DNA of 64,000 nucleotides from the IMG/VR virus record IMGVR_UViG_3300039355_000083, one strand, 5' to 3'. Both the position numbers and the translations under genes were made by a program. This document shows positions 3,178 through 59,000 of this stretch, piece after piece. How positions within the stretch are numbered: the first letter of the stretch is position 1; each line of letters begins with the position of its first letter. The notes under the pieces are model-generated. The model ran no database searches and was not told the origin of the DNA. It saw only the letters and a list, made by a program, of their open reading frames with translations. This stretch comes from a virus.

Positions 3178-4007
3178 GGTTAACAAAAGAAGAAGCCAGA
3201 GCATATAAGGGATATGCTCTAACTCCTAAGCAACTCATTGAGAAAGCAAAGAAATTTTATGATGATTTAACACCCGAAGAAAGAGATGAGGAATACATTG
3301 TCTATGGAAATAATATAAAATTTGAAAAAGTGGAGGTAGAAAGGCTTACTACTGGAGAATTTTATATGCGTTGTGTTAATGACATTGAAAAAAGATATGA
3401 AGAATTTAAAAATAGGGAACGTATTTACAATTCTTCAGCTGTAGCACCATATGATCCAAGATATAAAATGGATGATTTTACAGAATCAGAAAAAATGGTA
3501 AGTTTTCTATATTATTTAATGGACAATGGATTTTCTTTAGCCATATTATATCCTGAATATCCAATCGAAGTAATAGAAATGATTTTTTGGAGTATACCGG
3601 AAGTAAGAAAGACACCACAAGAAAGAGCAGCATCAAAAATAACAGAAGAATATACTAAGTATATAAAACCAGGAGAAAAAAATGTCGGAGGAGCAGAGCT
3701 TGTTAAAAGAAGAGCGAAAGCAAATCCACCACAGACCTCTTTGACTCCAGATGAAATTGCGAGTTTTGATCGTATGAGCGAAAAATGGCTAGTAAGATGG
3801 TGTAACTTTTCTACGAATTGGTTATGGGTAGCGCCATGTTTATTATTATGTATTGTGGTGAACAAAGGACTTATTTCAGCAATTGGATTACTTTTGTTTA
3901 TGGGGATTGGAGAGTGGTATTCATGGAAAGTCAAGGAATATTGTAGTGTGATACTGCCATGGTATCAACAAGCTGGAATTATGTTAGAGAGGAGAATGAA
4001 ATTATGA
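3174..4007 (+). CDS. hypothetical protein with C-terminal transmembrane segments
   Basis: 277 aa. The hydrophobic C-terminus 'WLWVAPCLLLCIVVNKGLISAIGLLLFMGI' predicts 2 TM helices. Start overlaps the previous stop (ATGA). Confidence 0.5.
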   Translation: MRLTKEEARAYKGYALTPKQLIEKAKKFYDDLTPEERDEEYIVYGNNIKFEKVEVERLTTGEFYMRCVNDIEKRYEEFKNRERIYNSSAVAPYDPRYKMDDFTESEKMVSFLYYLMDNGFSLAILYPEYPIEVIEMIFWSIPEVRKTPQERAASKITEEYTKYIKPGEKNVGGAELVKRRAKANPPQTSLTPDEIASFDRMSEKWLVRWCNFSTNWLWVAPCLLLCIVVNKGLISAIGLLLFMGIGEWYSWKVKEYCSVILPWYQQAGIMLERRMKL

Positions 4008-4987
4008 ATGGAAGGTTGGAGCATGAATTAAAATTAAATAAGAATGTTAAGAAAATTCTTAATGATATGCCACAATGCGTGAGTGATTTTTATATGAGTA
4101 TTCAGGCTGTTCGCAGCCCGAATACTTGTTTAAATTACGTTAGAAAACTTCATCATTTCTTAGATTATATAGATGTAGAAGATATAAGCGAAATTGATGC
4201 AGATGATATCGCAAGGTATCTGGAGCATATTAAATACGTAAAAGATGGTAATGGTGAAATTAAAAAGTCGTCTGTGGCATATACTAAATTGGTATGTTGC
4301 ACATTAAATAGGTTTTTTGATTTTTTGTATCGGAGAGGAGATATTGAAAGGAATCCGATGGACAATGTAAACCGGCCTATTAGAAAAGACTCGATTAAAA
4401 GAGTGTTTTTATCAATGGATGATTTAAATGGAATATTGGGTGCCGTAAAATATTCTTACATGCCAAAAGAATGGCATTCAAGAGATTATGCTATATTATA
4501 TTTATTTATGGTTACCGGCATGAGAAAAACTGCATTAAGCGAAATTAACTTAAGTGATTTAAATTTTGAGACTCACAATTTGACTATTATCGACAAGCGA
4601 GATAAAGAACAGGTATATCAATTAAATGATGATTCCATACGTGTATTAAGAGATTGGATCCTTGATCGAGATAAAATACTATATAATATGGGGATTAAAG
4701 AGGATGCTCTTTTTATATCAAAAAATGGAAAACGTATGGATCCACAAACGATCTATTGTATGGTAGTCAAATATGCCGAGAAAGGAATTGGTAAACATGT
4801 GTCTCCGCATAAGTTAAGAGCTGCTTTTGCTTCATTATATTATAAGGAAACAAAAGATATCGTTGCTACGAAAAATGCCGTAGGACATGCGGATATACAG
4901 ACAACCAGTATTTATACAGTTGAAGAAAATAACTCAAGAAAGGAAGCAACGGAGTTTATGTCGAAAAATTTATCATCAAAAATATAG
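3959..4987 (+). CDS. tyrosine site-specific recombinase (XerC/XerD-like integrase)
   Basis: 342 aa with the catalytic-domain signature 'HKLRAAFAS...GHADIQTTSIYT' (R..HxxR..Y) and an N-terminal core-binding-like domain. The true start may be the internal ATG near 4004. Confidence 0.8.
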   Translation: MVSTSWNYVREENEIMNGRLEHELKLNKNVKKILNDMPQCVSDFYMSIQAVRSPNTCLNYVRKLHHFLDYIDVEDISEIDADDIARYLEHIKYVKDGNGEIKKSSVAYTKLVCCTLNRFFDFLYRRGDIERNPMDNVNRPIRKDSIKRVFLSMDDLNGILGAVKYSYMPKEWHSRDYAILYLFMVTGMRKTALSEINLSDLNFETHNLTIIDKRDKEQVYQLNDDSIRVLRDWILDRDKILYNMGIKEDALFISKNGKRMDPQTIYCMVVKYAEKGIGKHVSPHKLRAAFASLYYKETKDIVATKNAVGHADIQTTSIYTVEENNSRKEATEFMSKNLSSKI

Positions 4988-5025: not shown

Positions 5026-6306
5026 GTGAGAAAAATGAATGTCGATAGAAGTATTTTAGAAGATTATTTATCCAAAAAGTTTTTTAATATCTTAATTAAT
5101 AAGAGTGAAGAACTAGAAATTTACAATTATGCATATGAGAAATATAATTATCCAAAAGGCATTTTTTCAGATTTTCTATCTAGTAGAAAGAGTATTGAAG
5201 AAGCAAATGATTATACACTTTTTGTAATTGCAGATAGTATATTAAATGCCACTAAAAAAGATTATCGCAAAAAGTTATCTGACTTTTTTACAGACAGAGA
5301 AATAAGTAAATATAGTGGGATGCGATACGAAGAACCAAATAAAATTGAATTCCCGTTGGTGTTCAATATGATTCAGGTAAGCGATGATCAATGGATAGGA
5401 TCTTTAAATGTAGATGCATTTTGCGCTCTGCAAGAATCAGGATTAATTAACTATAATCCTGTCACACAACGTGCCATGACTAAAGTAACACGAGATAATA
5501 ATGAGCTATATCGTATTACATTGAATAAGAATGCAGTAAAAGAAATTACGGCAGATATGTTGGAACATATTTATGTTCCGGATACAATCACTTTGAATAT
5601 CCCGAAAGATGATGTATACGCAGATTTTCATTATGATGAGCAATCACGTCAGCTTATTATTCATTCTTTAGAGGCATTTGATATAAACGATGGATATCAT
5701 AGATATGTATCAATGTTCCAGGCCAGAAGTAAAAATCCAAATTTTAACTATCCAATGGAGCTGAGAATTACAAACTTTGACATTGATAAATCTCGCCGTA
5801 TGATATATCAGTATGACCAGAAAACTAAAATGAGCAAACAGTTAAGCGACACATATAACTCATATGCAGCTCAGAATAAAGTGGTCCAGCGTATTAATGA
5901 AAGCAGTATGTGTAATTTGCAAGGGGAAATAAAAATAGGCGGGCTTATTGATTCAACAACTCTGGCAGAATGTATTAAGAGATTATATTTCAGTAAAAGG
6001 CAAAGTGATTCTCCTGAGCAACGAAAAGAAATCATTAGAGTATCAAAGGAATTTATCGAAGATCTTAATATGCTTACAGAAGAAGATGACAAGTATCTTG
6101 AAAAAGAATATTCAAAGAAAGAAATTATAATTCTTACGATCTTGTTTCATTATTATGATGGAAAAAATAAAATATCAATGATAGAGAACTATAAGCGTTT
6201 TCTTATTGATGATGCGGAACGTGAGGAAAAAATAATATATGATTTTTCGAGAAACTTTAATAGGATAAGGAAAAGATTAATTCCTTTTTTAGAGGAGAGA
6301 ATGTAA
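5026..6306 (+). CDS. DGQHR-domain (DndB-like, ParB/Srx-fold) protein
   Basis: 426 aa carrying a 'QR' motif ('NPVTQRAM') followed by 'NDGYHRY', which resembles the DGQHR signature of DndB-like ParB-fold proteins. Confidence 0.45.
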   Translation: MRKMNVDRSILEDYLSKKFFNILINKSEELEIYNYAYEKYNYPKGIFSDFLSSRKSIEEANDYTLFVIADSILNATKKDYRKKLSDFFTDREISKYSGMRYEEPNKIEFPLVFNMIQVSDDQWIGSLNVDAFCALQESGLINYNPVTQRAMTKVTRDNNELYRITLNKNAVKEITADMLEHIYVPDTITLNIPKDDVYADFHYDEQSRQLIIHSLEAFDINDGYHRYVSMFQARSKNPNFNYPMELRITNFDIDKSRRMIYQYDQKTKMSKQLSDTYNSYAAQNKVVQRINESSMCNLQGEIKIGGLIDSTTLAECIKRLYFSKRQSDSPEQRKEIIRVSKEFIEDLNMLTEEDDKYLEKEYSKKEIIILTILFHYYDGKNKISMIENYKRFLIDDAEREEKIIYDFSRNFNRIRKRLIPFLEERM

Positions 6307-7218
6307 ATGTATAACGAAGATAGAAAACAAAGGTTTTACGAATTTAAGTTAAAAACTGTTGCAAGCGTTACTCCTCTTGTACCTAGATTTAAGAGAGTTG
6401 CGCCGTTTGAACATATGTATCAAAAGGATTTATGTGACTTTAATTTAAATGAGATTACAGAAATGTATAAGTTGTTCAAATTTACAACATTAGAGTCTAT
6501 TATTGTAGTAAATAATACTCTTACACAATATACGGACTGGTGTGTTAATGAGAATTTAGTGTTAAATGGACAAAATATCTATGCAACTATCACACCTGAT
6601 ATGCTGGCAGCACTATTAAATAAGACATTGTTAAATCATCAGATTGTATCAAGAGATACAATTTTAACATGGATCGAAGCATTAAAGAATCCTAGAGATC
6701 GATTTATGATTCTGAGCATTTTTGAATATGGCAAGTCTAAAGATTTTGAAGACACGATTAGAGCAAAACTTGATGATATCGACGTAGAAAATCATACAAT
6801 GAAATTGTATTCCGGAAGAGTTGTAAATGTAAGTGAAGCATTAATTTTAACTGCACAAAAGAGCAATATGACAATGGAATTAACATATCCATATGGAACT
6901 AAATCCAAACTTATGGACGATGGAACCATTATAAAAAGATCTCATATTGTAAAAGATGATCCGCATTGTCTTGGAAGGCAAATGTATAATTCATTAGCGG
7001 CAGCATTGAAGTCTATAGATGTATCATATATGACTGCTGAAAAAATTAACATTTCCGGACAAATTCATATGACAAATGAATTAATCCGGAAGTATAATTC
7101 AAATAAAAACAAGATTTTATATGATGTTGAAACTCGGTCTATGATTGAACACCAATATGGAATTAAGATTAATAGATCTTCATATTTTCTTAAAAAATAT
7201 GGTGACTATTTAATATAG
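6307..7218 (+). CDS. hypothetical protein
   Basis: 303 aa, start overlapping the previous stop (TAAATG); no motif recognised. Confidence 0.45.
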   Translation: MYNEDRKQRFYEFKLKTVASVTPLVPRFKRVAPFEHMYQKDLCDFNLNEITEMYKLFKFTTLESIIVVNNTLTQYTDWCVNENLVLNGQNIYATITPDMLAALLNKTLLNHQIVSRDTILTWIEALKNPRDRFMILSIFEYGKSKDFEDTIRAKLDDIDVENHTMKLYSGRVVNVSEALILTAQKSNMTMELTYPYGTKSKLMDDGTIIKRSHIVKDDPHCLGRQMYNSLAAALKSIDVSYMTAEKINISGQIHMTNELIRKYNSNKNKILYDVETRSMIEHQYGIKINRSSYFLKKYGDYLI

Positions 7219-7650: not shown

Positions 7651-8802
7651 ATGAACAAGATTGAAGAAATGAAAGCATTGGTTGAAAAACTTAATCAGTA
7701 CCGAGATGCTTATTATAATAATGCAGAGAGTATTGTTACGGATCATCAGTATGATGATCTGTGTGATCAGTTGGAAAAAATGGAAAAAGAAACAGGAATT
7801 ATTTTAAGTAATTCTCCAGTCCATAGTGTTGGATATGAAGTAAAAAGTAAATTAGAGAAAATTGAGCATTCACATTTAATGATGTCTCTTGATAAAACTA
7901 AAGATGTGAATATGCTTCGAAAATTTATTGGTGATAAAGATTCTTTGCTAATGTGTAAGATGGATGGATTGACAATTCTTTTGACGTATGAAGATGGAGA
8001 GCTGATCCAGGCTGAAACTCGCGGAAACGGCGTCACAGGAGAAATTATTACTCACAATGCAAAGGCGTTCGAAAATATTCCTATGCATATTAATCAGAAA
8101 GGCCACGTTGAAATCGAAGGAGAAGCTATTATTACATATACAGATTTTGAGAAAATTAATAATTTAATTAAACACGAAGAAGATAGATATAAGAATCCGC
8201 GAAATCTTGCTTCAGGATCAGTCAGACAGTTAGATAGTAAGGTAGCAGCCAAACGTCATGTTCGTTTTATAGTATGGAAAGTACCTGCCGGTATGGATGA
8301 ACTACCTTTAATGTCAGCAAGATTTGAAAAAGCAAGAGAACTTGGATTTGATATTGTACCTTATATTCGTGTATATAAAGAAAATCAGAATCTTGAAGAG
8401 CTTATTAATCTGTTAAAGGAAAAGGCAGCATACTTATCTTATCCAATTGATGGGCTTGTTGCTGCATATAATGATATCGCTTATGGATTATCACTTGGAG
8501 TCACAGATAAGTATCCACGTCACTCTCTGGCATACAAGTTTTATAATGAAGAATATATTACGACACTTATTAATATTGAATGGCAAGTTGGTAAAACCGG
8601 AATTATTTCTCCGATAGCCGTATTTGAACCTATCGAAATAGAAGGAAGTATTATAACAAAAGCTAGTTTATTTAATCTTTCTATATTAAAAGAAAAATTG
8701 GGGCATCCTTATGTTGGACAAAAATTATGGATAATTAAAGCAAACCAAGTAATTCCATATATTACAAAAGCAGAAATGGTGGATGATAAATGGATAATAT
8801 AA
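7651..8802 (+). CDS. ligA: NAD-dependent DNA ligase, N-terminal fragment (Ia + adenylation + OB domains)
   Basis: Adenylation motif 'CKMDGL' (KxDG) and a LigA-like N-terminus 'LNQYRDAYYNNAESIVTDHQYDDL'. The ORF ends at the expected OB/Zn-finger domain boundary. Confidence 0.8.
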   Translation: MNKIEEMKALVEKLNQYRDAYYNNAESIVTDHQYDDLCDQLEKMEKETGIILSNSPVHSVGYEVKSKLEKIEHSHLMMSLDKTKDVNMLRKFIGDKDSLLMCKMDGLTILLTYEDGELIQAETRGNGVTGEIITHNAKAFENIPMHINQKGHVEIEGEAIITYTDFEKINNLIKHEEDRYKNPRNLASGSVRQLDSKVAAKRHVRFIVWKVPAGMDELPLMSARFEKARELGFDIVPYIRVYKENQNLEELINLLKEKAAYLSYPIDGLVAAYNDIAYGLSLGVTDKYPRHSLAYKFYNEEYITTLINIEWQVGKTGIISPIAVFEPIEIEGSIITKASLFNLSILKEKLGHPYVGQKLWIIKANQVIPYITKAEMVDDKWII

Positions 8803-9350
8803 AAATAGAAATATGGAAAGATATAATAGGATATGAGGGGTATTATCAAATAAGTAATTTAGGTAATGTTAAAAGTTTGAATAGAATTGTAAAAAATAAA
8901 AATGGTTATAGAAATACTGGCGAAAGATTATTAAAAATTTATTTACCTAAAGATAGTCAGCATTATCCATTTGTTATTTTATGCAAGAATGGAAAAACTG
9001 AAAACAAATTAATACATCGTTTAGTAGCCACAGCATTTGTAACTAATGACAATCCTATACATAAAACACAGGTAAATCATATAGATGAAAATAAAATGAA
9101 TAATAGTTCTGATAATTTAGAATGGTGTACTCCTAAATATAATGCAGAATATGGAACAAGAATAGAACGTACTAAAAAATCTACAACAAATAATCAATCG
9201 TGGAAGCGCGTTTTATGCGAAGAAACAGGTAAGACATACAGGTCTATTCGTTCAGCGTCTATGGATACAGGTGATTGCGAACACACCATTGCAAGAATGT
9301 GTAACGGATTAAAAACTAAAAATCTAAAATACCATTGGAGGTATGTATAA
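8790..9350 (+). CDS. HNH homing endonuclease (NUMOD4 + HNH_3 type)
   Basis: N-terminal 'WKDIIGYEGYYQISNLGNVKS' (NUMOD4-like) and 'HRLVA...VNHIDENKMNNSSDNLEWCT' (HNH). It overlaps the ligA N-fragment stop and the C-fragment start in different frames. Confidence 0.75.
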   Translation: MDNIKIEIWKDIIGYEGYYQISNLGNVKSLNRIVKNKNGYRNTGERLLKIYLPKDSQHYPFVILCKNGKTENKLIHRLVATAFVTNDNPIHKTQVNHIDENKMNNSSDNLEWCTPKYNAEYGTRIERTKKSTTNNQSWKRVLCEETGKTYRSIRSASMDTGDCEHTIARMCNGLKTKNLKYHWRYV

Positions 9351-10222
9351 TGAACAATATAAAATTTATTCAAATCCCTGAAGTATGCCCGATTTGTGGT
9401 AAGCCGGTGTCTGTTGTGAAAGAAAATGATTCTGAAGTATTGATGTGCATGAATGCTGGATGCAAAGGCAAGCTTCTGGGTGAATTAAATGCTTTTGTAG
9501 GGAAAAAGGCCCATGATATTAATGGATTATCTGAGGCCACATTGCAGCTATTGATTGATACTGGGCTTGTGGCATCACCAATTGATCTGTATTATTTGAA
9601 GGATCATTCTACAGAATTGTCCAGATTGCCTAGAATGGGAACAAAGAAAATTGCGAATATTTTAGATTCTATTGAGTCTAGTAGGAATACCACCATAGAA
9701 AAATTTATTGTAGGATTAAATATTCCGTTAATTGGTGGTAGAGCTGCAAAGGATATTGCTAGATATGAAGAAATAAGAACTAGGGAATCAGGAATACTCT
9801 ATCCATTTGAAACTTTTATTAAAGATGCTGCTTCTGATTTTAATTTTACCTGTATTGAAGGATTAGGGACGGAGCGAAATATTTCTATCCATAGATATTT
9901 TAAGGAAAATTATGATTACGTTATTGCTTTGGCAGAACAGTTCATATTTTCGAAACTTAATAATGATAAAATATCTTCTGAAAGCGATTCATTGTCCGGA
10001 AAGAAATTCTGTATCACTGGGAAGTTACATATTTTTGCTAACCGGGATGAACTTGTGGCGGATATAGAATCAAAAGGAGGGAAAGTTGTGTCCGGAGTTA
10101 CAAAGGCAACTGATTATCTAATTACCAATGATAAAAACAGTGGATCTAGTAAAAATAAGAAAGCTTCTGAGTTGAATATTCCTATTATCAGTGAAGAAGA
10201 ATACAAAAACAAATTAAATTAA
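9350..10222 (+). CDS. ligA: NAD-dependent DNA ligase, C-terminal fragment (Zn finger + HhH + BRCT)
   Basis: Cys4 Zn finger 'CPICGKP...CMNAGCKGK', helix-hairpin-helix region and BRCT-like 'GKKFCITGKL'. ATG at 9350 overlaps the HNH stop (TAATG) and follows RBS GGAGG. Confidence 0.75.
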   Translation: MNNIKFIQIPEVCPICGKPVSVVKENDSEVLMCMNAGCKGKLLGELNAFVGKKAHDINGLSEATLQLLIDTGLVASPIDLYYLKDHSTELSRLPRMGTKKIANILDSIESSRNTTIEKFIVGLNIPLIGGRAAKDIARYEEIRTRESGILYPFETFIKDAASDFNFTCIEGLGTERNISIHRYFKENYDYVIALAEQFIFSKLNNDKISSESDSLSGKKFCITGKLHIFANRDELVADIESKGGKVVSGVTKATDYLITNDKNSGSSKNKKASELNIPIISEEEYKNKLN

Positions 10223-10964: not shown

Positions 10965-13031
10965 ATGTTTAGAGATTTTGTAAAGGCAATCCAGAAAAAT
11001 TTACAGCAGATGTCTAAAGATTCTTCAAGATTATTCACAGTAAATGTGGACACCGAGGAGCTTTATAATTTATATCTGGATTCGTTTCCGGCAGGTACAA
11101 ATGAAATTTACAGAGAAAGAAGAGAATATGACTGCAGTTGCTGTAGACATTTTATCAGAGACGTTGGTAACGTTGTATCTATTAAAAATGGTGAGTTACA
11201 TACCATTTGGGGAATTAATCCAGTATCAGATGATAAATATAATGTAGTCGCAGCTGCGCTTGATGCCTATGTAAAACAGAAAGCGGTATCAGGGGTATTC
11301 CTCAAAAAAGAGAAACGAATTGGTACTCATGAAAATAGAGAAATGCTCCCGACAGGAAAAATTAATAAATACGAGCATTTCTTCGTAGATCTGCCAGAAA
11401 TTTGTATCTTTAAGGAATGTTATGGACATACACTTGAAGGTGATTTAAGTCAATTCAGAGATGTCCGTAATGTATTTAAACGTTCTCTTGATGAAATTAG
11501 TAAAGAAGCTGTAGATACTGTACTTGAACTGATTGCTCAAAATTCTTTATATAAAGGTGCCGAATGGAAAAAGCAACTTACTGAATTTAAGAATTATCAG
11601 AAAGAATATGGAAAGCTTACGGATAAACAGAAAGAACTTTGGATCTGGGAAAAGTCAATTTCTGCAGGTGCCGTTATCGGTAAGATTCGTAACCATAGCA
11701 TAGGAACATTGCTGGTGAATATTTCCGAAGGAATGGATCTTGACCTTGCCGTTAGAAAATATGAGCAGATTGTAGCCCCTGTAAATTATAAACGTCCAAA
11801 GGCAATTTTTACAAAGAAGATGCTTGAAAATGCAAAGAAGACTATTACAGAACTTGGTTATATGGATTCATTACAGAGAAGATTTGCTACCTTGGATGAT
11901 ATCACAGTGAACAATATACTTTTCTCTAATAAAGACGCAGCAAAGAGAATTACCGGCGCTATGGATTTGTTTGATGAAATGGAACAGGATGTTGCAATTG
12001 ATCCAAAACGATTCTCTAAGGTAGAGGAAATAAGTGCAGAAGATTTTATTAAGAATGTTTTGCCAGTGGCAAAGGAACTGGAAGTATACCTGGAGAATAA
12101 ACATATTCAAAATATGGTATCTTTGATTGCTCCAGAAGTTGCTGATGCGAAAACAATGTTCAAATGGAACAATGGAATGTCTTGGGCGTATACCGGTAAT
12201 ATTACAGATTCAGATATCAAAGAAAATGTAAAAGCTGCTGGTGGTTCAGTCACAGGCATTGTAAGATTTTCTATTCAATGGAATGACAAAGATGGAAAAG
12301 ATAATTCTGACCTTGACGCACATTGTATTGAACCAAAACGTGGAGAGCATATTTATTTTGGTCACAAAAAAGCACGATCCGGTGGAGAATTGGATATTGA
12401 TATTACTCAGCCAGTTGATCAGTGCTGGAATAGTAATGGAGTTGCCGTTGAAAATATTACATTTCCATCTAAAGAACGCATGATTCCTGGTACATATAAG
12501 TTTTTTGTACATCAGTTCGCATACAGAGGATCTCAGGGATTTAAAGCCGAAATCGAAGTAAATGGAGAAATTCATTCTTATGAATATAATACTCCAGTAC
12601 GTGGCGATGTAGATGTTGCAGAAGTAATTCTTGATCAGGCAGGTAATTTTAAAATTGTGGACAAACTTCCAGGAAATTGTTCTATGATCAGTAAAGATGT
12701 ATGGGGAATTAAAACTCTGCAGTTTACACCGGTATCTGTTGTATGCTACTCACCAAACTACTGGGATGAACAGAAGGGAATTGGTCATCAGCACTTATTC
12801 TTTATGCTGAAGGACTGCATCAATCCAGAAGAGCCGAATGGATATTATAATGAATTCTTGAAACCGGAACTTGAGCAGCATCGAAGAGTATTTGAAGCGC
12901 TTGGAGCGAAGGCACATGTAAAAGATATTGATGATCAGCTTTCTGGAGTAGGATTCTCCCTTACAAAGAGAAATGATTTGATTATTAAGGTAAAGGGTGC
13001 TACAGAGCGAGTATTAAAAATCAAATTCTAA
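10965..13031 (+). CDS. large hypothetical protein (688 aa)
   Basis: Long uninterrupted ORF with RBS AAGGAGATAA and an N-terminal Cys cluster 'DCSCCRHF'. No family recognised by eye. Confidence 0.55.
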   Translation: MFRDFVKAIQKNLQQMSKDSSRLFTVNVDTEELYNLYLDSFPAGTNEIYRERREYDCSCCRHFIRDVGNVVSIKNGELHTIWGINPVSDDKYNVVAAALDAYVKQKAVSGVFLKKEKRIGTHENREMLPTGKINKYEHFFVDLPEICIFKECYGHTLEGDLSQFRDVRNVFKRSLDEISKEAVDTVLELIAQNSLYKGAEWKKQLTEFKNYQKEYGKLTDKQKELWIWEKSISAGAVIGKIRNHSIGTLLVNISEGMDLDLAVRKYEQIVAPVNYKRPKAIFTKKMLENAKKTITELGYMDSLQRRFATLDDITVNNILFSNKDAAKRITGAMDLFDEMEQDVAIDPKRFSKVEEISAEDFIKNVLPVAKELEVYLENKHIQNMVSLIAPEVADAKTMFKWNNGMSWAYTGNITDSDIKENVKAAGGSVTGIVRFSIQWNDKDGKDNSDLDAHCIEPKRGEHIYFGHKKARSGGELDIDITQPVDQCWNSNGVAVENITFPSKERMIPGTYKFFVHQFAYRGSQGFKAEIEVNGEIHSYEYNTPVRGDVDVAEVILDQAGNFKIVDKLPGNCSMISKDVWGIKTLQFTPVSVVCYSPNYWDEQKGIGHQHLFFMLKDCINPEEPNGYYNEFLKPELEQHRRVFEALGAKAHVKDIDDQLSGVGFSLTKRNDLIIKVKGATERVLKIKF

Positions 13032-13064
13032 TACAATTTAATTAAACAAAGAAGGGAGAAAGTT

Positions 13065-13556
13065 ATGAAATTTAAAGAAGCATTTGAAGAAATGAAATCT
13101 GGAATTCCAGTAAAACTTCCGTCATGGGCGGGTTATTGGTGGTGGGATGAAGAATCCCAGACAATCCTTATGTACACAAAAGATGGCGGCTGTCTGGATA
13201 TAAGAGAAACACAGAATGTGGAGTATACGCTTCAGAATATTCTTTCCGATGAGTGGGTTTATGCGGATAGTCGGAACTGCCCAATACTTGGTGGAGAAGC
13301 AACATTCTCATTCGGAGAAGCGATTAAGTACCTGAAAAGAGGATTTAAAGTGGCACGTAAAGGCTGGAATGGAAAGAAACAGTACATTCAGCTTGCCACT
13401 GGGATTTCTTATAAGACTGCCGATAATGAGATTGTAAATTGTGAGCATGACGCAATCGGAAATAAAGCCATCGCTTTTGTAACATCTGGCGTACAGATGG
13501 GATGGCTTGCTACCCAGTCGGATATGCTCGCAGAAGACTGGATGTTTGTTAAATAA
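13065..13556 (+). CDS. tandem DUF2829-like protein (Tad2-like anti-Thoeris sponge candidate)
   Basis: Two copies of the DUF2829-style 'FxEAxxxxKxGxxVxRxxW' motif ('MKFKEAFEEMKSGIPVKLPSW' and 'FSFGEAIKYLKRGFKVARKGWNGKK'). C-terminal 'GWLATQSDMLAEDWMFV' matches the family hallmark 'WLxSQxDLLAEDW' as I recall it. Confidence 0.55.
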   Translation: MKFKEAFEEMKSGIPVKLPSWAGYWWWDEESQTILMYTKDGGCLDIRETQNVEYTLQNILSDEWVYADSRNCPILGGEATFSFGEAIKYLKRGFKVARKGWNGKKQYIQLATGISYKTADNEIVNCEHDAIGNKAIAFVTSGVQMGWLATQSDMLAEDWMFVK

Positions 13557-14151: not shown

Positions 14152-14898
14152 ATGAAAACATTTACAAAAAGAATTCTTTTACTTGCTTCGATACTCCTTA
14201 TTTGGAATATCACAGCAAAACACGTAAATCCCTTGTTCGTTCCGGAGCCAGTTACGGTATTTGATGATCTGATAGGCATGATACATACCGGACAGTTGAT
14301 TAAGGCAATTGAATATTCGTTTCTAAGAATAACTGCTGCTACATTTATATCTGGAGCAATAGCATTTCCTATAGCGATTCTGGTTTATAATTCCAGAATT
14401 GCTAAGGATATTCTTAATCCGATAATCAGTGTTATGCGATATATTCCGGTGACTGCATTTTATCCATTGCTTATTATGTGGTTCGGGATAGATGAAATGA
14501 TGAAAATTGTATTTTTGTTTATTGCAACATTCGTATATATGATGCCGTCAGTTGTATTATGCCTGGAGGAAGTGAACAACGATCTAATAGATACCGGACT
14601 TACAATTGGAATGAGCAAATTACAAACGATATGGAGAATCCAGATTCCGGCATCATTGCCAGGAGTATTAAATAGCTACATTATGATGTATGGAATTGGA
14701 TTTACATATATTGCAGTAGCTGAAACAATAAATGCTAAATATGGACTTGGATATATAATCCAGCAATCATCTTCCAGAGGAAGAACAGATTTAGTATTTA
14801 TGGCAATCATTATGATTATGATCATTAGTGTTATATTTGATTATGTGTCTAAATGGTTAGTAAGGAAGATTTTTAAATGGAGGTATATCAATGATTAA
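14152..14898 (+). CDS. ABC transporter permease (NitT/TauT, SsuC/TauC-like)
   Basis: 248 aa with about 6 predicted TM segments, BPD-transporter-like core, translationally coupled to the following ATPase. Confidence 0.7.
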
Positions 14899-15502
14899 AA
14901 TTCATGATTTATACACAGGATACAGTAGAGATAAACCACTTTTATCTGGATTTAATTACAATTTTGATAATAAGATCTATGGGATCCTTGGAGAATCTGG
15001 ATGTGGAAAGACAACTTTGCTAAGGACTGTTGCAGGATTGCTCAAACCGTTATCTGGAGAAATTATCATAGATAATAATCCGGTTACAAAAGCAAGTAAA
15101 AATGAAATATATATGATGCATCAGAACTATACTTCTTTTGATTGGTTAAATTGTCTTGACAATATACTAATTGCTAAAAAAGTTAAAGGCCATGTAGAAC
15201 CAGAAGATATAGAAGCAGCTAAGAAGATGCTTTATTTAGTTGGTCTGAATGGAAACGAAAATAAATATCCTAAGCAGCTGTCTGGAGGCATGAAACAACG
15301 GCTTGCGTTAGCCAGGACGTTATTTGCAAAACCAAAGATTCTTTTAATGGATGAACCATTGTCAGCACTGGATGCTGAGACACGAAGTAATATGCAATTG
15401 TTAATTATGGATTTACATAGGTTACTTGATAATACTGTGATCATGGTCACACACAGTGAATCAGAAGCAAAGATAATGTGTGATGAAATATTGAAATTTT
15501 AG
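14891..15502 (+). CDS. ABC transporter ATP-binding protein
   Basis: Walker A 'GESGCGKTT', ABC signature 'LSGGMKQR' and Walker B 'ILLMDEP'. Confidence 0.85.
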
Positions 15503-22570: not shown

Positions 22571-23350
22571 ATGGCTATCGTTGGTGCAATCTTAGGTGAT
22601 ATTGCAGGTTCACAATATGAATTTGGTAGACCAATTGATTTAGATTGGAAGAATTGTAAGTTATTTACTGATAGATGTTATTTTACAGATGATACTGTAA
22701 TGACACTTGCTGCTAAATTAGCAATTATTAATAATAAATCTTTCACAGAATCATATAGAGAATGGGGAAGAAAATATCCAAATGCAGGATATGGAAACAA
22801 TTTTGAAACGTGGTTAAGATACGATGATAAAACTGCATACGGAAGTTTTGGTAATGGATCTGCAATGAGATGTTCTTATATTGGAGAACATTTTAACACA
22901 GAGAAAGAAGTTATTGAATGGGCTACTAAGTCTGCTGAGTGTACGCATAATCATCCAGAAGGAATTAAAGGGGCGGTTGTAACAGCAATGTGTATTTATA
23001 TGGCAAGAACAGGAGTTACTAAAGAGGAAATCTATGAATATGCGAAGAAGAATTATCCAAAAGACGATTATCAATATAGTGTTGAATATAAAATTGAAGA
23101 CTATAGAAAGATATATCAGTGGAATGAAACTTGTCAAGGAAGTGTACCTGTTGCAATTAGATGTTTTTTAGAGAGTGGTGATTATGAAAGTTTCTTGCGA
23201 AACGTGTTCTCATTAAAGTGTGATATGGATACGTTATGTGCTATAGGTGGTGGAATTGCGGAAGAATTTTATCACGGAACTGGATTAAACAATGATTACT
23301 TACTTGGACATTACCTGAATAGACAATTGTACAGGATTGTAGAAATGTGA
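22571..23350 (+). CDS. ADP-ribosylglycohydrolase (ARH/DraG family)
   Basis: N-terminal 'IVGAILGDIAGSQYEF' plus the 'TDDT' motif and 'GNGSAMR', all typical of the ADP-ribosyl-(arginine/dinitrogenase reductase) hydrolase fold. Confidence 0.7.
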   Translation: MAIVGAILGDIAGSQYEFGRPIDLDWKNCKLFTDRCYFTDDTVMTLAAKLAIINNKSFTESYREWGRKYPNAGYGNNFETWLRYDDKTAYGSFGNGSAMRCSYIGEHFNTEKEVIEWATKSAECTHNHPEGIKGAVVTAMCIYMARTGVTKEEIYEYAKKNYPKDDYQYSVEYKIEDYRKIYQWNETCQGSVPVAIRCFLESGDYESFLRNVFSLKCDMDTLCAIGGGIAEEFYHGTGLNNDYLLGHYLNRQLYRIVEM

Positions 23351-24635: not shown

Positions 24636-25556
24636 ATGGAGCAGAAGAAATTTATGGATATTCAACGTCTGAAAGAAGGATATGCAGATGGATTTGTACC
24701 GGGTGACTTAATTGTTATCCAGGAAAAATTTGATGGATCTAATGCAGCAGCTAGATATGATGCAGAGACTGGCAAAATGGTAGCTTTTTCCAGAAGACAT
24801 ACGTTGAATCAGAACAATACATTAAATGGTTTTTATAATTATGTGCAGGAGTTAAATCCTGAAGATTATAAAGACGTTCCGGACTATGTAATATTTGGAG
24901 AATGGTCTGGAGCAAGAAATGCGATTATTTATTATCCAGAAAATACTAAGAAATGGTACGTATTTGATATTTATGATGTAAGGGAAGAAAAATATCTTCC
25001 TCAGTCAGAAGTAAAGGCATTTGCAGAAACGCATGGACTTACATATATCAATACATTTTATGTTGGACCGTTTGTCAGTTGGGAACATGTACAAAGTTTT
25101 ATGGATCATCCGGGATATGGAGAAATTCAAGAAGGTATTGTTATAAAGAACCAAACAAGATTAAACGATCCGAATAGCAGATTACCATTTGTAGTGAAAA
25201 TCGTTGGAGATAAATTTCATGAAGTCACAAAAATGAATCATGTTAAAAAGATTCAAGATCCACAAAAGTTGCAAGAACGAACAGAAGCACAGGAACTTGT
25301 AAAATCTGTCGTGACGCGGCGTAGAGTTGAAAAAGAGTTATATAAAATGCGTGATGAAGGAATCATCCCAACAGAGTGGTGTGAACAGGATATGAAAACT
25401 GTTGCAAGGAATCTTCCAAACAGAATTTATACAGATTGTGTAAAAGAAGAACCGGAAGTAGTTCAAGCAGCAGGACAATATTTTGGAAAATTCTGTTCCG
25501 TTATTTCGATGAATTACGCACGAGAGATTATTCTCGGTCCGACTGGAGCAAAGTAA
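24636..25556 (+). CDS. ATP-dependent RNA ligase (Rnl2-like nucleotidyltransferase)
   Basis: Motif I 'EKFDGSN' (KxDG lysine adenylation site) in a ~300-aa protein of Rnl2/DRB0094-like size. Confidence 0.6.
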   Translation: MEQKKFMDIQRLKEGYADGFVPGDLIVIQEKFDGSNAAARYDAETGKMVAFSRRHTLNQNNTLNGFYNYVQELNPEDYKDVPDYVIFGEWSGARNAIIYYPENTKKWYVFDIYDVREEKYLPQSEVKAFAETHGLTYINTFYVGPFVSWEHVQSFMDHPGYGEIQEGIVIKNQTRLNDPNSRLPFVVKIVGDKFHEVTKMNHVKKIQDPQKLQERTEAQELVKSVVTRRRVEKELYKMRDEGIIPTEWCEQDMKTVARNLPNRIYTDCVKEEPEVVQAAGQYFGKFCSVISMNYAREIILGPTGAK

Positions 25557-50288: not shown

Positions 50289-51392
50289 ATGAAAGATATA
50301 AAAATTGTCATCGGAGCAAACTTTGGTGACGAGGGCAAGGGCAAATTAACAGATTATTATACTAAAAATGCAGATAACTGTATCGTTGTGTGTTCAAATG
50401 GCGGTGCCCAGAGAGGACATACAGTATTAAAATCAGATGGAACCCGGCATGTCTTTCACCATTTCGGCTCTGGAACATTAAACGGAGCAGATACTTATTT
50501 ACCGGAGGATTTTATTTTAAATCCTCTGGTATTTAGGGAAGAATGGGAAGAGTTGAAGAAATTAGGATGGGAACCTTATGTGTACGTTCATGAACAATGT
50601 ATGATTACGAATCCTCTTGATATGATGGCAAATCAAATTATTGAGCGAAGTCGCGGTAATAATAAACACGGAAGTTGTGGAATGGGTATTTATAATACCA
50701 TTCAACGATATAAAAAGCATATTGATTCATATTCATTATCATGGACATATTATATGAACATGTTCAAAAACATGGGAATTACGTTATCTGAGCAGGAAGA
50801 AGAATTATTTCATCCCGTAAAAAATCCTGGGCTTCGAGACCATTACAATGAAGATCTTGATTTTATGATGTCTCATGTACATGTTGTAAATAATATTCAA
50901 TTACTACTTAATGGATACGACACCATTGTGTTTGAAAATGGTCAGGGGCTTCTTTTGGATCAAAATAATACTGAATATTACCCACATCTTACACCATCAA
51001 ATACTGGTATTAAGAATCCTGCCAGAATTATAAAGGCTATAAGATGGACTGATGAAATTAATATAGAAGCTTGTTATGTGACACGTACATATATGACGCG
51101 GCATGGAGCCGGTGCGTTCCCAACTGAATGTAATAAGGAAGAAATTAATCCGGACATCAAAGATTTAACCAATGTTCCAAATCCACATCAGGATACTTTG
51201 AGATATGGGAAGTTAAATGTTGAAGAACTATATGAAAGATGTCAAGCAGACATAATAAGTGCAGGTTTTCCGTGTCAAAAAACATTGGCTATAACTCATT
51301 TTAAAGAATATTGGGAGCCAGTTGCACTTATACGTGAAACGTTCAAGAAAAGTAACTGGGGATTTAGTATTTTTCATAAGGAAGAGAATTAA
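50289..51392 (+). CDS. short adenylosuccinate synthetase homolog (PurA-like; PurZ candidate)
   Basis: P-loop 'GANFGDEGKGK' and 'GGAQRGHT' match the PurA catalytic motifs. At 367 aa it is nearer archaeal-type PurA/PurZ than the ~430-aa bacterial PurA. Confidence 0.65.
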   Translation: MKDIKIVIGANFGDEGKGKLTDYYTKNADNCIVVCSNGGAQRGHTVLKSDGTRHVFHHFGSGTLNGADTYLPEDFILNPLVFREEWEELKKLGWEPYVYVHEQCMITNPLDMMANQIIERSRGNNKHGSCGMGIYNTIQRYKKHIDSYSLSWTYYMNMFKNMGITLSEQEEELFHPVKNPGLRDHYNEDLDFMMSHVHVVNNIQLLLNGYDTIVFENGQGLLLDQNNTEYYPHLTPSNTGIKNPARIIKAIRWTDEINIEACYVTRTYMTRHGAGAFPTECNKEEINPDIKDLTNVPNPHQDTLRYGKLNVEELYERCQADIISAGFPCQKTLAITHFKEYWEPVALIRETFKKSNWGFSIFHKEEN

Positions 51393-51667: not shown

Positions 51668-52471
51668 ATGATTAAATTAAACGACGTAGAAATCAAACTT
51701 GATAAATATCCGGATGGAACATTCTTATTTAAGGATATTCCTCCTATTGGCGGATGGCACAGAGATAATATTGAATGGTTCTTTGAATCAATGGAAGAGT
51801 TAACAGCAGTTGAATATATTACTAGATATTGTTGGGATCATAGAGTAGTGCCTAATTTATATATGCCTTATATCCCAGATGCACGTATGGACCGAGTTAA
51901 GCATAAGAACGAATTATTTACTTTAAAATATTTTGCTCAGACTATTAATTCATTACATTTTGGAAAAGTAGAAGTTTTAGATCCGCATTCTGATGTATCT
52001 GCCGCATTATTTAATAAAGTACATGTAGAATCCCCGAATCGAATGATTGAGGATGCTGTTAAGAAGATTGCGAGTAATAACCTTATGATGTTTTATCCGG
52101 ATGCGGGATCCATGAAGCGATATTCTTCAGCAGTACATCTTCCATATGCTTTCGGTATTAAGAATAGAGATTGGGAAACGGGAGAGATTAAAGGTTTAGA
52201 TTTATCAGGTGAAATTGATCAGTTACCAGGTAAAGATATCCTTATTGTAGATGATATTTGCAGCAGAGGCGGAACTTTTTATCACAGTGCTAAAAAACTG
52301 AAAGAGGCCGGTGTAGGTAAGATTTATCTTTATGTAACTCATTGTGAAAACACTATTTATGAAGGAGAACTTCTGAAAAATAATGGATTAATTGAGAAGA
52401 TTTATACGACAGATACGATTTTGACAAATCTGGAAAGTCCTAAGATTGAATTGGTTGAGAGGTTTAGATAA
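51668..52471 (+). CDS. ribose-phosphate pyrophosphokinase-like PRTase (Prs/Adps-like)
   Basis: PRPP-binding motif 'ILIVDDICSRGGT'. The 267-aa length is that of the short Prs-like enzymes that accompany phage NadV genes. Confidence 0.65.
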   Translation: MIKLNDVEIKLDKYPDGTFLFKDIPPIGGWHRDNIEWFFESMEELTAVEYITRYCWDHRVVPNLYMPYIPDARMDRVKHKNELFTLKYFAQTINSLHFGKVEVLDPHSDVSAALFNKVHVESPNRMIEDAVKKIASNNLMMFYPDAGSMKRYSSAVHLPYAFGIKNRDWETGEIKGLDLSGEIDQLPGKDILIVDDICSRGGTFYHSAKKLKEAGVGKIYLYVTHCENTIYEGELLKNNGLIEKIYTTDTILTNLESPKIELVERFR

Positions 52472-52519
52472 GGAGGAATATTATGAAACAAATTATTATT
52501 CCTTTAGGGTGGTGAGAAA

Positions 52520-53285: not shown

Positions 53286-53363
53286 TACATGCAAAAAAGC
53301 AATCTTTTTTCGGAGAATCAATGTGAAATATGAAAGAATGCAAGAGGAATGGAGAAATAGTAT

Positions 53364-53705: not shown

Positions 53706-53714
53706 GGAGGAGTT

Positions 53715-55190
53715 ATGAATAATACTTTAGCAATTTTACTTTCAGATACATATAAACAAATTCATAATAAAATCTATCCAAAAGGATTAACAAAACTTGT
53801 TTCCTACTGGACTCCACGACGATCAATGCTTAAGAATCAGAACAAAATGGTTTTCTTTGGTTTACAAGCATTTATTGAAGAATATCTGGTTGACTATTTC
53901 AATGAAAATTTTTTCGAGCTAACAGCAGTAGAAGTTGAGCATACATATAAATACAGTATGGATATACAGTTAGGAAATAGTTATGACCTAGAGCCTATTA
54001 TGAAACTTTATAAATTAGGTTATCTTCCAATTCAGATACGTGCTATCCCGGAGGGAACATTAGTACCAATGGGCATTCCATGCATCGAGATTACAAACAC
54101 ACATCCAGATTTTGCTTGGGTAGTACAGTGGATAGAATGTATCCTGCAGGTTGAACTCTGGAAACCATGTGCTCATGCAACAATTAGTCATATGTATAGA
54201 GAACTTGCAAACAACTACTATAAAATGACTTGTGATGACTTTTTAAGACCTGAAATGGCATGCTCAGACTTTGGTATGAGAGGAATGTCTTGCATGGAAG
54301 AGGCAGTAAGATGTTCATCTGCTTGGTTATTATCATTTGATAAGACAAGTACAATTCCGGCCATTGATTATATAGATACGTATTATGATGCTTGCTGTTG
54401 GACTAAAAGAATCGGAATTGGTGCTGTATCAACAGAACATTCAGTTATGGCTTCAAATTATGCAGTAGACGGTGATGAAATCACATTTGTAAAAAGACTA
54501 CTTACGGAACTATATCCTAATGCATCTTTCAGTATGGTATCTGACACTTATGATTACTGGAATATGATTGATAATATTCTTCCGGCTTGTAAAAAAGAAA
54601 TCATGCAGCATAATGGTAAACTTCTGGTTCGTCCAGATTCCGGAGATATGGTAGAAATTGCTGTAGAGACAATTGAAAAGCTTTGGAATACATTCGGCGG
54701 AACAGTAAATAGCAAGGGATATAAAGTGCTTGATCCGCACATTGGAATTATTTATGGGGACGGATGTACTCTTAATAATGTAAAGCAGGTATGGGAAAAA
54801 CTGAAGAAAAAAGGATTTGCTGCAAACAATATCGTATTCGGAGTCGGAGCATTTTGCTTCTCAGCAGTTATAGAACCCGATGGACATATGGTTGTTGTAA
54901 CCAGAGATATGTTTGGTATTGCTATGAAAGCCACCTATGGAATTGTCAATGGCGAGCCAATTATGATCTATAAAGATCCAAAAACCGATACGAGTCATTT
55001 GAAAAAATCTCATAAAGGGTGTTGTTGTATATATTACGATGACAATGGAGAATTACAGTGTGAAGACGGGTATAATGATGTATTTCGTGACGGAGCGTTA
55101 AGTACCGTATTTGTAGATGGGAAAGCTTGCAATAAAGAAACATTTGAAGACATTAGAGAAAGATTAAACGGAGGAAACAAAGATGAGTAA
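53715..55190 (+). CDS. nadV: nicotinamide phosphoribosyltransferase (NAMPT/NadV-like type II PRTase)
   Basis: N-terminal 'ILLSDTYKQIHNKIYPKGLTKLVSYWTPR' parallels NAMPT 'ATDSYK...YP...VYSYFECR'. 491 aa. Confidence 0.7.
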   Translation: MNNTLAILLSDTYKQIHNKIYPKGLTKLVSYWTPRRSMLKNQNKMVFFGLQAFIEEYLVDYFNENFFELTAVEVEHTYKYSMDIQLGNSYDLEPIMKLYKLGYLPIQIRAIPEGTLVPMGIPCIEITNTHPDFAWVVQWIECILQVELWKPCAHATISHMYRELANNYYKMTCDDFLRPEMACSDFGMRGMSCMEEAVRCSSAWLLSFDKTSTIPAIDYIDTYYDACCWTKRIGIGAVSTEHSVMASNYAVDGDEITFVKRLLTELYPNASFSMVSDTYDYWNMIDNILPACKKEIMQHNGKLLVRPDSGDMVEIAVETIEKLWNTFGGTVNSKGYKVLDPHIGIIYGDGCTLNNVKQVWEKLKKKGFAANNIVFGVGAFCFSAVIEPDGHMVVVTRDMFGIAMKATYGIVNGEPIMIYKDPKTDTSHLKKSHKGCCCIYYDDNGELQCEDGYNDVFRDGALSTVFVDGKACNKETFEDIRERLNGGNKDE

Positions 55191-55656: not shown

Positions 55657-55671
55657 AGAGGAGTAAAGAGA

Positions 55672-56622
55672 ATGAATTTACAAAGTATTAGTAGATATAT
55701 AAGTCTTATATTAAGACATAAGCCTGAAGTTATTGGTATTACTATAGATGAACATGGTTGGGCGAATGTAGAAGAACTGATTCAGGGTATCGCTAAAAAC
55801 AATCCCGGATTCAACAAAGAATTTTTAGAGGAAATTGTACGGACTGACAATAAGCAGCGATATTCTTTCAATGATGACAAGACATTGATCAGAGCGAATC
55901 AGGGACATTCAATTCCGGTAGATGTAGAACTGGAAGAGAAAGAGCCACCTAAAATTCTTTATCATGGAACTGGCGAGAAATATATAGCGTCTATTGATCA
56001 GAATGGACTGATTCCTAAAAGTCGTTTATATGTTCATTTGTCAAAAGATGTTGAAACCGCCAAAGCTGTCGGCAAGAGACATGGTAAAGAAGTTGTTTAT
56101 TCTATCAATAGTGAACAGATGTACAAAGATGGATACAAATTTTACTTATCTAAAAATGGAGTTTGGCTGACTAAAAGGGTTCCAGTGAAATATTTAATGA
56201 AGGAAGGTATAAAAATGAGTAGTACATATTTTACGGATTCAGTTTCAGATCTTTGTCAGGGGATTGTTGATAAAGCAGATACTTATGAAAAACGAATTAA
56301 ATACTTAGAAGAAGAAAACAAGAAGCTCAAAGATGAGCATTATAAAGATTCTGAAATGCAGAGAATGGAAGCAGAACTGAAAAAAGCGAAAGAGGATCTG
56401 TATAGAGGATTTCCAATTTCAGAAAAAGAACAAGAGAAAATCAGAGAGTGGGAATTAAAACATGATGCTGAGAAACATGGTTTGAAAACTATGGAACAGA
56501 GAGCAATGGGACATGGTTGCATAGGCGGCTCTCTTACATGGTGCTTTACACCAACATCAATCGGAACTATTGGAGAAGTGATTTGCTCCTGTGGCGAGAA
56601 GTTTACATTTCAGGATTTATAG
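55672..56622 (+). CDS. kptA: RNA 2'-phosphotransferase Tpt1/KptA with C-terminal coiled-coil/Cys extension
   Basis: Tpt1 signature blocks '[27 protein letters not shown]', 'IRANQGHSI' and 'LYHGT'. Confidence 0.75.
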
Positions 56623-58238: not shown

Positions 58239-59000
58239 ATGAAATATTACGATGGATATTTTAAAGAACTCAAGAATGAAATTGTACAGTGGATCAGAGA
58301 CTGGTTCGATCAGAATGGTCCCGGCTGCAATGCAATTGTAGGAATCTCTGGTGGAAAAGATTCTTCCGTAGTAGCAGCGCTTTGTGTAGAAGCTCTTGGA
58401 AAAGATCGTGTAATTGGTGTACTAATGCCACAGGGTCAGCAGAAAGATATTTATGCTGCGTACAAGCTTTGTGAATTTCTTGATATTAAATCATACGAAA
58501 TCAACATTAGCGACACAGTTCGAAGTGTATTGTCAAGACTCGAAAGCTCAGGAATCGAGATCAGCGAACAGACAAAAATAAATCTTCCGGCACGTATTAG
58601 AATGTCTACATTATATGCTGTCTCTCAGTCTTGTAATGGAAGAGTAGCAAATACATGTAATCTTTCAGAATCATATGTCGGTTATGAAACCAGGTATGGT
58701 GATTCGGCAGGTGATTTTAGTCCGTTAGGAAAATTAACTGTATATGAAGTTAAAAAACTTGGATATGAATTATTGCTTCCTACAGAACTTATTGAAAAGA
58801 TTCCAATTGATGGATTATGTGGAAAGACAGATGAGGACAATTTAGGATTCCCATATGAAGTTCTGGACAGATATCTTCGTACAGGAGAGATTGACGATCT
58901 GGCTGTAAAAGCTAAGATTGATTTAATGCATAAACGATGTCTCTTCAAATCAGAGAAGATTCCGGTATTTAATCCTGAATTAAAAGTGGAGGCAGAATAA
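58239..59000 (+). CDS. nadE: NH3-dependent NAD+ synthetase
   Basis: PP-loop 'GISGGKDSSVVAAL' and NadE-like C-terminus ('LGFPYEVLDRYL'). 253 aa. Confidence 0.65.
   Translation: MKYYDGYFKELKNEIVQWIRDWFDQNGPGCNAIVGISGGKDSSVVAALCVEALGKDRVIGVLMPQGQQKDIYAAYKLCEFLDIKSYEINISDTVRSVLSRLESSGIEISEQTKINLPARIRMSTLYAVSQSCNGRVANTCNLSESYVGYETRYGDSAGDFSPLGKLTVYEVKKLGYELLLPTELIEKIPIDGLCGKTDEDNLGFPYEVLDRYLRTGEIDDLAVKAKIDLMHKRCLFKSEKIPVFNPELKVEAE

Follow-up and report, generated by a model that had tools for sequence, protein, structure and literature searches.

A phage gene that fuses a diverged and a canonical Tad2 fold: a candidate two-module sponge for TIR-derived immune signals

The open reading frame (ORF) at positions 13065..13556 of the 64,000-nucleotide viral sequence IMGVR_UViG_3300039355_000083 (the window, meaning the whole stretch that was analyzed) is a real gene, and its product comprises two Tad2-fold domains. 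The C-terminal half is clearly a canonical Tad2 domain, and the N-terminal half adopts a diverged version of the same fold, of a short type marked by a WxGYW signature. The explanation that we favor, with a probability of roughly 0.55, is that the protein is a two-module Tad2 sponge for ADP-ribose (ADPR) signals derived from enzymes with TIR (Toll/interleukin-1 receptor) domains, whose N- and C-modules would pack together in the chain and two copies of which would build a pseudo-tetramer.

The original prediction for this ORF had pointed to two copies of a motif typical of the N-terminus of DUF2829 proteins and to a C-terminus resembling the hallmark of Tad2 sponges, and both observations were borne out. 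The spaced motif F-x-E-A-x4-K-x-G-x2-V-x4-W is found at residues 3-21 (FKEAFEEMKSGIPVKLPSW) and 83-101 (FGEAIKYLKRGFKVARKGW), and among the 938 stop-to-stop ORFs of at least 30 amino acids in the six frames of the window it occurs nowhere else. The Arg residue of the motif as first formulated is present in the second copy only (R98), the first copy having L18 instead. The C-terminus, GWLATQSDMLAEDWMFV, aligns with GWLASQTDMLANDWVIV of HgmTad2/AcrIIA7, and the residues that contact glycocyclic ADPR (gcADPR) are kept in the C-terminal domain, as detailed below. The exact 163-residue protein is encoded on seven independent metagenome contigs, with the same neighboring genes wherever the flanking DNA suffices, and the ORF is thus not an assembly artefact. 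The possibility that two genes had been joined by an assembly error was likewise ruled out, given these seven identical copies and the fusion of the two halves in 76 of 80 relatives. A scan for promoters and terminators around the ORF returned nothing above chance. The window protein is one Gly short relative to nearly all of its homologs (FVTSGVQMGW vs. FVGTSGVQMGW, hence 163 rather than 164 residues); this deletion, at 13482-13490 (residues 140-142), lies just before the ligand residue W147 and is shared by all seven contigs that encode the exact protein.

The C-terminal half belongs to the Tad2 family. The Pfam family PF11195 (Tad2-like, formerly DUF2829; curated cutoff, 25 bits) spans residues 82-162 end to end, with an E value of 1.1e-23 and a score of 84 bits. 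Significant sequence matches in the PDB are confined to the Tad2 family: pdAcrIIA7 (9KZR), which is the best one (E 4.7e-12), HgmTad2 (8KBI), ModTad2 (9EIB, 8V3E), SptTad2 (8WJD) and SPO1 gp34.65 (8SME, 8WJE). An AlphaFold2 model of the full protein, built with 31 homologs, has a predicted local distance difference test score (pLDDT) of 89.7 and a predicted template modeling score (pTM) of 0.74, and all 24 of its Foldseek matches in the PDB with E<1e-3 are Tad2 structures. Two of the checks proposed along with the original prediction, a search for DUF2829 and a comparison of a predicted model with Tad2 structures, therefore both came out in its favor. By such matches, the full model, and likewise the N-domain model described below, show the Tad2 fold of an N-terminal helix, an antiparallel sheet and a short helix ahead of the last strand. 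While Tad2 proteins are single domains of about 90-100 residues, the window protein has 163 residues and two such folds, and in the BFVD viral structure library only one domain was matched at a time (query-normalized TM score of at most 0.42), with no two-domain counterpart.

The gcADPR contacts of two Tad2 proteins have been published, namely W25, N26, W73, S76, T78 and D79 in SPO1 Tad2 (10.1101/2023.05.01.538930), and W21, N22, G23, W87, L88, S90, T92 and D93 in HgmTad2 (10.1101/2023.11.15.567273). By alignment, they correspond to W101, N102, G103, W147, L148, T150, S152 and D153 of the C-domain. Across 22 diverse two-domain homologs, on which all conservation figures given here are based, only R98, D153 and D158 are invariant in that domain.

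The relationship of the N-terminal half to Tad2 is too remote for simple searches. BLASTP found no match between the two halves, Pfam searched at E<=10 gave no Tad2 match for the N-terminal half alone (residues 1-77), and NCBIfam assigned no family to the whole protein, the N-terminal half or its stand-alone relative. Compared with PDB sequences, an N-domain profile yielded marginal E values of 0.1-0.5, six of the seven matches being to Tad2. In contrast, three independent lines of evidence agree in identifying this half as another, diverged copy of the Tad2 fold. First, hhalign aligned the profiles of the two halves, built from representatives of clusters at 50% identity, over their entire length (67 columns) with a probability of 96.5% and a score of 49.8, as opposed to 13.0 for the reversed profile and at most 11.7 for 10 column shuffles; in the alignment of the two domains, T55 faces T150, and N58 faces D153. 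Second, a model of residues 1-72 alone has a pLDDT of 95.7; the seven best PDB matches of this model are Tad2 structures without exception (query TM scores of 0.67-0.72), and the next match is at 0.26. The domain consists of a helix, four strands, a helix and a strand, i.e., all core elements of the fold without the insertion that bears helix α2 of Tad2. Third, a bridging relative exists in Clostridium phage CP51, whose free-standing gp006 has 68 residues, is 53% identical to the N-domain and matches the Pfam Tad2-like family end to end with 27.8 bits, above the cutoff. Clostridium perfringens proteins 94-96% identical to CP51 gp006 carry the NCBI name ‘Thoeris anti-defense Tad2 family protein’. 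Thus, the description of the protein as a tandem of Tad2 copies was correct in that a second Tad2 fold is present but not in the sense of a simple duplicate, since the N-terminal half belongs to a separate short subtype (WxGYW), is devoid of the canonical set of ligand residues and has no Pfam match of its own.

The N-domain is nevertheless the more conserved of the two, with a mean pairwise identity of 50% vs. 32% for the C-domain, and the idea that it might be a decaying duplicate was rejected for that reason. W21, G23, W25, T55 and W64 are invariant, Y24 is found in 21 of the 22 homologs, and Y54 and N58 each in 19. Among the canonical contacts, only the first Trp (W21) and the Thr (T55) are kept, Q57 being one of the replacements. 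One might argue that the N-module binds no ligand and is a scaffold or a regulatory ‘head’ on which the oligomeric state, the solubility or the timing of a conventional Tad2 sponge depends. The loss of the canonical ligand residues would fit with such a role, and the case of pdAcrIIA7 provides a precedent for N-terminal add-ons that can modulate Tad2 cores. On the other hand, conservation is higher in the N-module than in the C-module that binds the ligand, the invariant N-module residues occupy positions equivalent to those of the Tad2 pocket (T55 and N58 on helix α3, along with the W-x-G loop), and modules of this type also exist in free-standing form, all of which make a mere scaffold improbable.

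A close known relative of the C-domain is SPO1 Tad2 (gp34.65; PDB 8SME, 8SMF and 8SMG), with which it has in common the fold, the WNG loop, and the helix with the W-x-x-S/T-Q-T/S-D ... (E/D)DW motif that contacts gcADPR; in addition, both proteins are encoded by phage accessory genes. However, SPO1 Tad2 is a single 89-residue domain that forms a homotetramer, whereas the window protein has a divergent Tad2 fold fused in front, so that one 163-residue chain already amounts to two of the four folds of the tetramer. The closest α3 motifs are those of HgmTad2/meAcrIIA7 (PDB 8KBI-8KBM) and Tad2_71, GWLASQTDMLANDW and PWLASQTDMLAEDW, compared with GWLATQSDMLAEDW in the window protein. Both of these proteins are binders of cyclic ADPR (cADPR) isomers: HgmTad2 binds 1''-2' and 1''-3' gcADPR (10.1101/2023.11.15.567273), and Tad2_71 binds 3'cADPR and N7-cADPR. 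The canonical WNG module (residues 81-163) keeps the pocket for TIR-derived ADPR signals known from solved Tad2 proteins, and because this pocket is retained, the protein would most likely sequester Thoeris signals, 3'cADPR or 2'cADPR, and possibly His-ADPR or N7-cADPR. Such sequestration would keep the Thoeris effector off during infection.

A broader activity toward the nucleotides of cyclic-oligonucleotide-based antiphage signaling systems (CBASS), which had also been put forward, finds no support in the comparison with HgmTad2. Residues R31, P32, D34, L36 and N85 of its cyclic-dinucleotide (cGG) pocket are replaced by A111, T112, I114, Y116 and M145 in the window protein, a comparison that covers these five residues, as K46, S47, F70 and T71 of the pocket lie inside the insertion and cannot be aligned. 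In addition, the long β2-β5 insertion has 41 residues in HgmTad2 and about 30 in the window protein. With the pocket residues replaced and the insertion shorter, binding of CBASS dinucleotides is not predicted.

Since the best PDB sequence match is pdAcrIIA7, it is conceivable that the protein blocks type II CRISPR-Cas by binding RNA in the manner of AcrIIA7; a structured RNA, e.g., trans-activating CRISPR RNA, would then be bound in the basic groove of the Tad2 core. Like the window protein, pdAcrIIA7 is a chain of about 160 residues in which an additional N-terminal domain precedes the Tad2 core, and the similarity reaches into the linker (LLGEETGTF vs. ILGGEATFSF). Moreover, the lysines that pdAcrIIA7 needs in order to bind single-guide RNA, K58, K66 and K71, are conserved as K91, K99 and K104; these are, however, general features of the Tad2 core. 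The add-on of pdAcrIIA7 differs from that of the window protein in that it is a 48-residue two-helix ‘head’ and not a second Tad2 fold. Furthermore, the N-terminal domain of pdAcrIIA7 abolishes its activity, and it is the truncated form alone that binds RNA, at micromolar doses (PMC13133391), whereas the core is not free in the window protein or in the 76 of its 80 best IMG/VR relatives that are fused. Another group observed no inhibition of Cas9 by HgmTad2 in vitro or in vivo (10.1101/2023.11.15.567273). Taken together, these points make RNA-based inhibition of CRISPR-Cas a very unlikely function.

Fusions of Tad2 to further sponge domains, Acb4 and Sequestin, are frequent (10.1101/2025.07.12.664507). 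Similar to the window protein, Acb4-Tad2 of Pasteurella phage Pm86 and Sequestin (PF21825)-Tad2 combine Tad2 with a small sponge module that is also found free-standing, but their partner domains have unrelated folds, while the partner in the window protein is a diverged Tad2 paralogue. As the N-type module is not a separate Pfam family, a search for Pfam domain fusions would miss this architecture. It had been considered unusual at the outset, which turned out not to be the case, as the fusion has its own PHROG, is present at some 600 IMG/VR loci and is carried by cultured phages. The whole protein matches PHROG 1048, of unknown function (E 7.6e-61), and a database of 5.8 billion proteins returned 4129 matches, the best 120 of which are 78-99% identical and mostly about 164 residues long. 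In IMG/VR, the N-type signature was confirmed at no fewer than 595 loci, on contigs of about 4 kb to 177 kb; among the best 80 of these loci, 76 encode the N-C fusion, two are frameshifted, one is cut by the contig end, and one has three modules. The latter (L095:1216-1992) harbors, in one frame, a further diverged short module, an N-type module and a canonical one, suggesting that the array might expand. Fusions in cultured phages include those of Dorea phage DO134P1 (75% identity) and of Ruminococcus gnavus phage phiRg507T2_3 (gp19; 68%). A literature search on tandem or heteromeric Tad2 found no paper describing such proteins. The architecture is therefore widespread, yet apparently an unstudied member of the known Tad2 family.

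The two types of modules also occur as separate proteins. Stand-alone N-type proteins of 68-75 residues are found in Clostridium phage CP51 and Ruminococcus phage RG-TP1. In Bacillus phage phi4J1, the overlapping genes gp62 and gp63 code for a protein of 80 residues with S-I-W-G-G-Y-W, followed by an 87-residue canonical Tad2 with REGWNGK and GWLASQTDMLANDW. The same gene pair is indicated in SpaA1, BceA1, Waukesha92, TP21T and BMBtp3, in view of matches to the two proteins at the same neighboring positions and of two annotated DUF2829 genes. In Lactobacillus phage Lenus, gp036 (WGGYW type) precedes gp035 (canonical). The first Bacillus protein, when compared with the window protein, matched the C-domain over its full length (E 4e-7); its match to the N-domain covered the first 26 residues of the latter (E 4e-6). 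Since it has a canonical C-terminus (QADMLAEDW) and an insertion, it is intermediate between the two domain types. The phi4J1 and Lenus pairs have the same order of subtypes as the window protein, WGGYW and then WNG, but they are separate genes, overlapping in phi4J1. Being fused in one lineage and adjacent in others is a usual sign of proteins that work together, and this recurrent pairing, as neighbors or as a fusion, suggests that the two types may cooperate.

How the modules would be arranged can be considered from the model. Its pTM together with the conserved linker, in which N71 and L75 are each found in 20 and G77 in 18 of the 22 homologs, suggests a fixed packing of the predicted N- and C-modules within the chain. 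The N-module lacks helix α2, which argues against a canonical V-shaped dimer for it, and the conserved pairing of the two types argues for joint assembly. According to the explanation that we favor, the N-module would be a constrained, functional partner of the canonical module, both would pack within one chain, and two chains might form a pseudo-tetramer similar to the Tad2 homotetramer, with ligand pockets built wholly or partly from unlike halves. From these comparisons, we infer the ligand, the way in which the protein would oligomerize, what the N-module would contribute and an anti-Thoeris phenotype.

The main rival to such a partner role is an independent second specificity. The protein would then be a fused sponge of dual specificity, with pockets formed by N-N contacts that take a different signal, while the C-module would independently take ADPR-type Thoeris signals. 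That the module can work alone is indicated by its stand-alone occurrence in CP51 and RG-TP1, fusions of two sponges are documented (Acb4-Tad2 and Sequestin-Tad2; 10.1101/2025.07.12.664507), the N-module has an invariant set of its own (W21/G23/W25/T55/W64), and the three-module relative has an N-like, an N and a C module. This proposal is nonetheless rather unlikely, as the order of the types is constant across gene pairs and fusions, which, along with the conserved linker and the pTM value, fits joint assembly better than a flexible tether, and as the N-module is devoid of the very helix that forms the V-shaped dimer of Tad2.

Several observations weigh against the two-module sponge that we favor. 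The canonical contacts are gone from the N-module, with A22 in place of Asn, V52 or Y54 in place of the second Trp, and N58 in place of Asp. In the C-module, the WNG loop varies in divergent members, and N102 is present in 13 of the 22 homologs. CP51 gp006 has no adjacent canonical Tad2 gene, indicating no strict dependence of the N-type on a partner, and no N-type motif was found in the searchable tables of experimentally tested Tad2 homologs. Finally, the ligands of Tad2 members range from 3'cADPR, 2'cADPR and His-ADPR, as well as N7-cADPR, to cGG/cGAMP and cUMP/cCMP, and because they vary so widely, membership in the family does not fix the ligand. A stronger version of the proposal, in which the WxGYW and WNG paralogues would form an obligate heteromeric sponge, as a gene pair in Bacillus and Lactobacillus phages or as a fused chain in gut Clostridia phages, with pockets made from unlike halves, is a possibility that we put forward tentatively.

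The phage signal sponges described in the literature consulted are homo-oligomers of small size, and their symmetric pockets lie where the subunits meet. If diverged Tad2 folds are indeed paired as proposed, duplication would be a further route by which sponges can become heteromeric or pseudo-symmetric assemblies, and this could alter ligand specificity or stoichiometry. A heteromeric sponge, if it exists, would offer an asymmetric site for an asymmetric or still unidentified TIR-derived signal, and it would be the first heteromeric sponge of immune signals. The short WxGYW module, which is abundant in phages of gut Clostridia, makes a promising candidate for a novel specificity of binding because it is fused to a known sponge, the same logic that led to Sequestin. 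The family thus supplies ready candidates for learning which TIR or other nucleotide signals act in gut Firmicutes.

The window comes from a large uncultured phage. All of its genes are on the + strand, its GC content is 33%, and it has four tRNA genes; in a megablast search of its first 25 kb against cultured phages, only 5% matched, to a human fecal phage, and no close cultured relative was found. The ORF is flanked by the gene of a 688-residue protein (DUF8224, PHROG 1735) and by that of a PHROG 2018 protein. In Clostridioides phage pCD1602_4, the PHROG 1735 and PHROG 2018 genes are directly adjacent, with no gene in between. The GC content of the ORF, 41.9%, is the highest of 60 ORFs (mean 33.6%, standard deviation 2.7). 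In other, temperate phages, homologs are located between holin and endolysin genes, beside an endolysin gene at the end of a prophage, or with head genes on both sides. Given its top GC content, its absence at the same junction of pCD1602_4 and its variable position elsewhere, the Tad2-fusion gene looks like an inserted, mobile accessory gene. As for its DUF8224 neighbor (10965-13031; L009:3894-5936), this protein is conserved in pCD1602_4 and in Bacillus Herelleviridae (TsarBomba, Bcp1), it is labeled ‘galactose-binding domain-like’ in some records, and its gene is paired with the PHROG 2018 gene both in the window and in pCD1602_4.

The locations of the temperate homologs near lysis or head genes might be taken to mean that the protein has no part in anti-defense, and that it is an accessory protein for a housekeeping messenger, cyclic di-GMP (c-di-GMP) or cyclic di-AMP, or for lysis or morphogenesis. 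The tight binding of c-di-GMP by HgmTad2 (10.1101/2023.11.15.567273) would agree with the first of these options; however, the c-di-GMP pocket residues of HgmTad2 that can be aligned are not conserved. The position of the gene varies between phages and is outside the lysis and head modules in the window, as is typical of inserted accessory genes, and all characterized members of the family act against immunity. A function outside anti-defense consequently seems highly improbable. The coordinates of the gene, its domains and other features of the window are listed in Table 1.

Table 1. Coordinates in the window of the Tad2-fusion gene, its parts and other genes, with supporting evidence or remarks
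Feature	Position	Strand	Evidence or remark
Tad2-fusion ORF	13065..13556	+	ATG start, 163 aa (amino acids)
Shine-Dalgarno-like AAGGGAG	13052..13058	+	6 nt 5' of ATG; read off sequence
N-terminal short Tad2-fold domain, aa 1-68, ‘WxGYW’ type	13065..13268	+	hhalign, AlphaFold2 model, stand-alone relative
W21-A22-G23-Y24-W25 signature loop, at position of Tad2 WNG loop	13125..13139	+	Conservation and alignment
Y54-T55-x-x-N58 ... D62-x-W64, counterpart of Tad2 α3 ligand helix and terminal (E/D)DW	13224..13256	+	Conservation and alignment
Conserved inter-domain linker, aa 69-80 (N71-C-P-x-L75-G-G)	13269..13304	+	Homolog conservation, model pLDDT 93-95
C-terminal canonical Tad2 domain, aa 81-163	13305..13553	+	Pfam PF11195, PDB sequence matches, Foldseek; 25-30-residue insertion at ~aa 111-140
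W101-N102-G103 = SPO1 Tad2 W25/N26, HgmTad2 W21/N22/G23 (gcADPR contacts)	13365..13373	+	Alignment and published residue roles
W147-L-A-T150-Q-S152-D153 = SPO1 W73/S76/T78/D79, HgmTad2 W87/L88/S90/T92/D93	13503..13523	+	Alignment
DNA ligase adenylation and OB domains	7651..8802	+	Ligase part 1
NUMOD4/HNH endonuclease	8790..9350	+	Appears to interrupt ligase
BRCT-containing ligase part	9335..10222	+	Ligase part 2
Adenylosuccinate synthetase	50289..51392	+	Nucleotide/NAD metabolism cluster 50289-59000
Prs-like protein	51668..52471	+	Weak matches to phosphoribosyl pyrophosphate (PRPP) synthetase
NAMPT/NAPRTase-family protein	53715..55190	+	Nucleotide/NAD cluster
Tpt1/KptA RNA 2'-phosphotransferase	55672..56622	+	Nucleotide/NAD cluster
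NAD synthase NadE	58239..59000	+	Nucleotide/NAD cluster

The original prediction had further linked the sponge to an island for NAD+ reconstitution, the two together providing a two-layer evasion of Thoeris-like immunity. Genes for NAD salvage are indeed present in the window (NAMPT family, Prs-like and NadE), but they lie about 40 kb from the Tad2-fusion ORF and do not form an island with it, and the two-layer scheme therefore rests on co-occurrence in the same genome.

Other regions of the window hold further genes of interest. Between 20439 and 25556, tRNA genes for Gln, Leu, Met and Lys are found among those of an AAA/STAND-like ATPase, an ADP-ribosylglycohydrolase (22571..23350) and an RNA ligase (24636..25556); together with Tpt1, this region could be a set for tRNA repair or for the reversal of ADP-ribosylation. 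The NAD-dependent DNA ligase gene (7651-10222) appears to be split by a homing endonuclease gene, and another gene similar to those of homing endonucleases, with GIY-YIG and HTH_7 domains, is located at 17466-18314, which, with the HNH gene, makes two homing endonucleases in 10 kb. Two tyrosine-recombinase-type genes, one for an integrase (3959..4987) and one MrpR-like (6307..7218), flank a DndB-like gene (5026..6306). Finally, the segments 14152-15502 and 18317-19663 encode an ABC transporter permease and ATPase, as well as an NMT1/THI5-like substrate-binding domain joined to an OmpA domain, an auxiliary transport set that is unusual for a phage.

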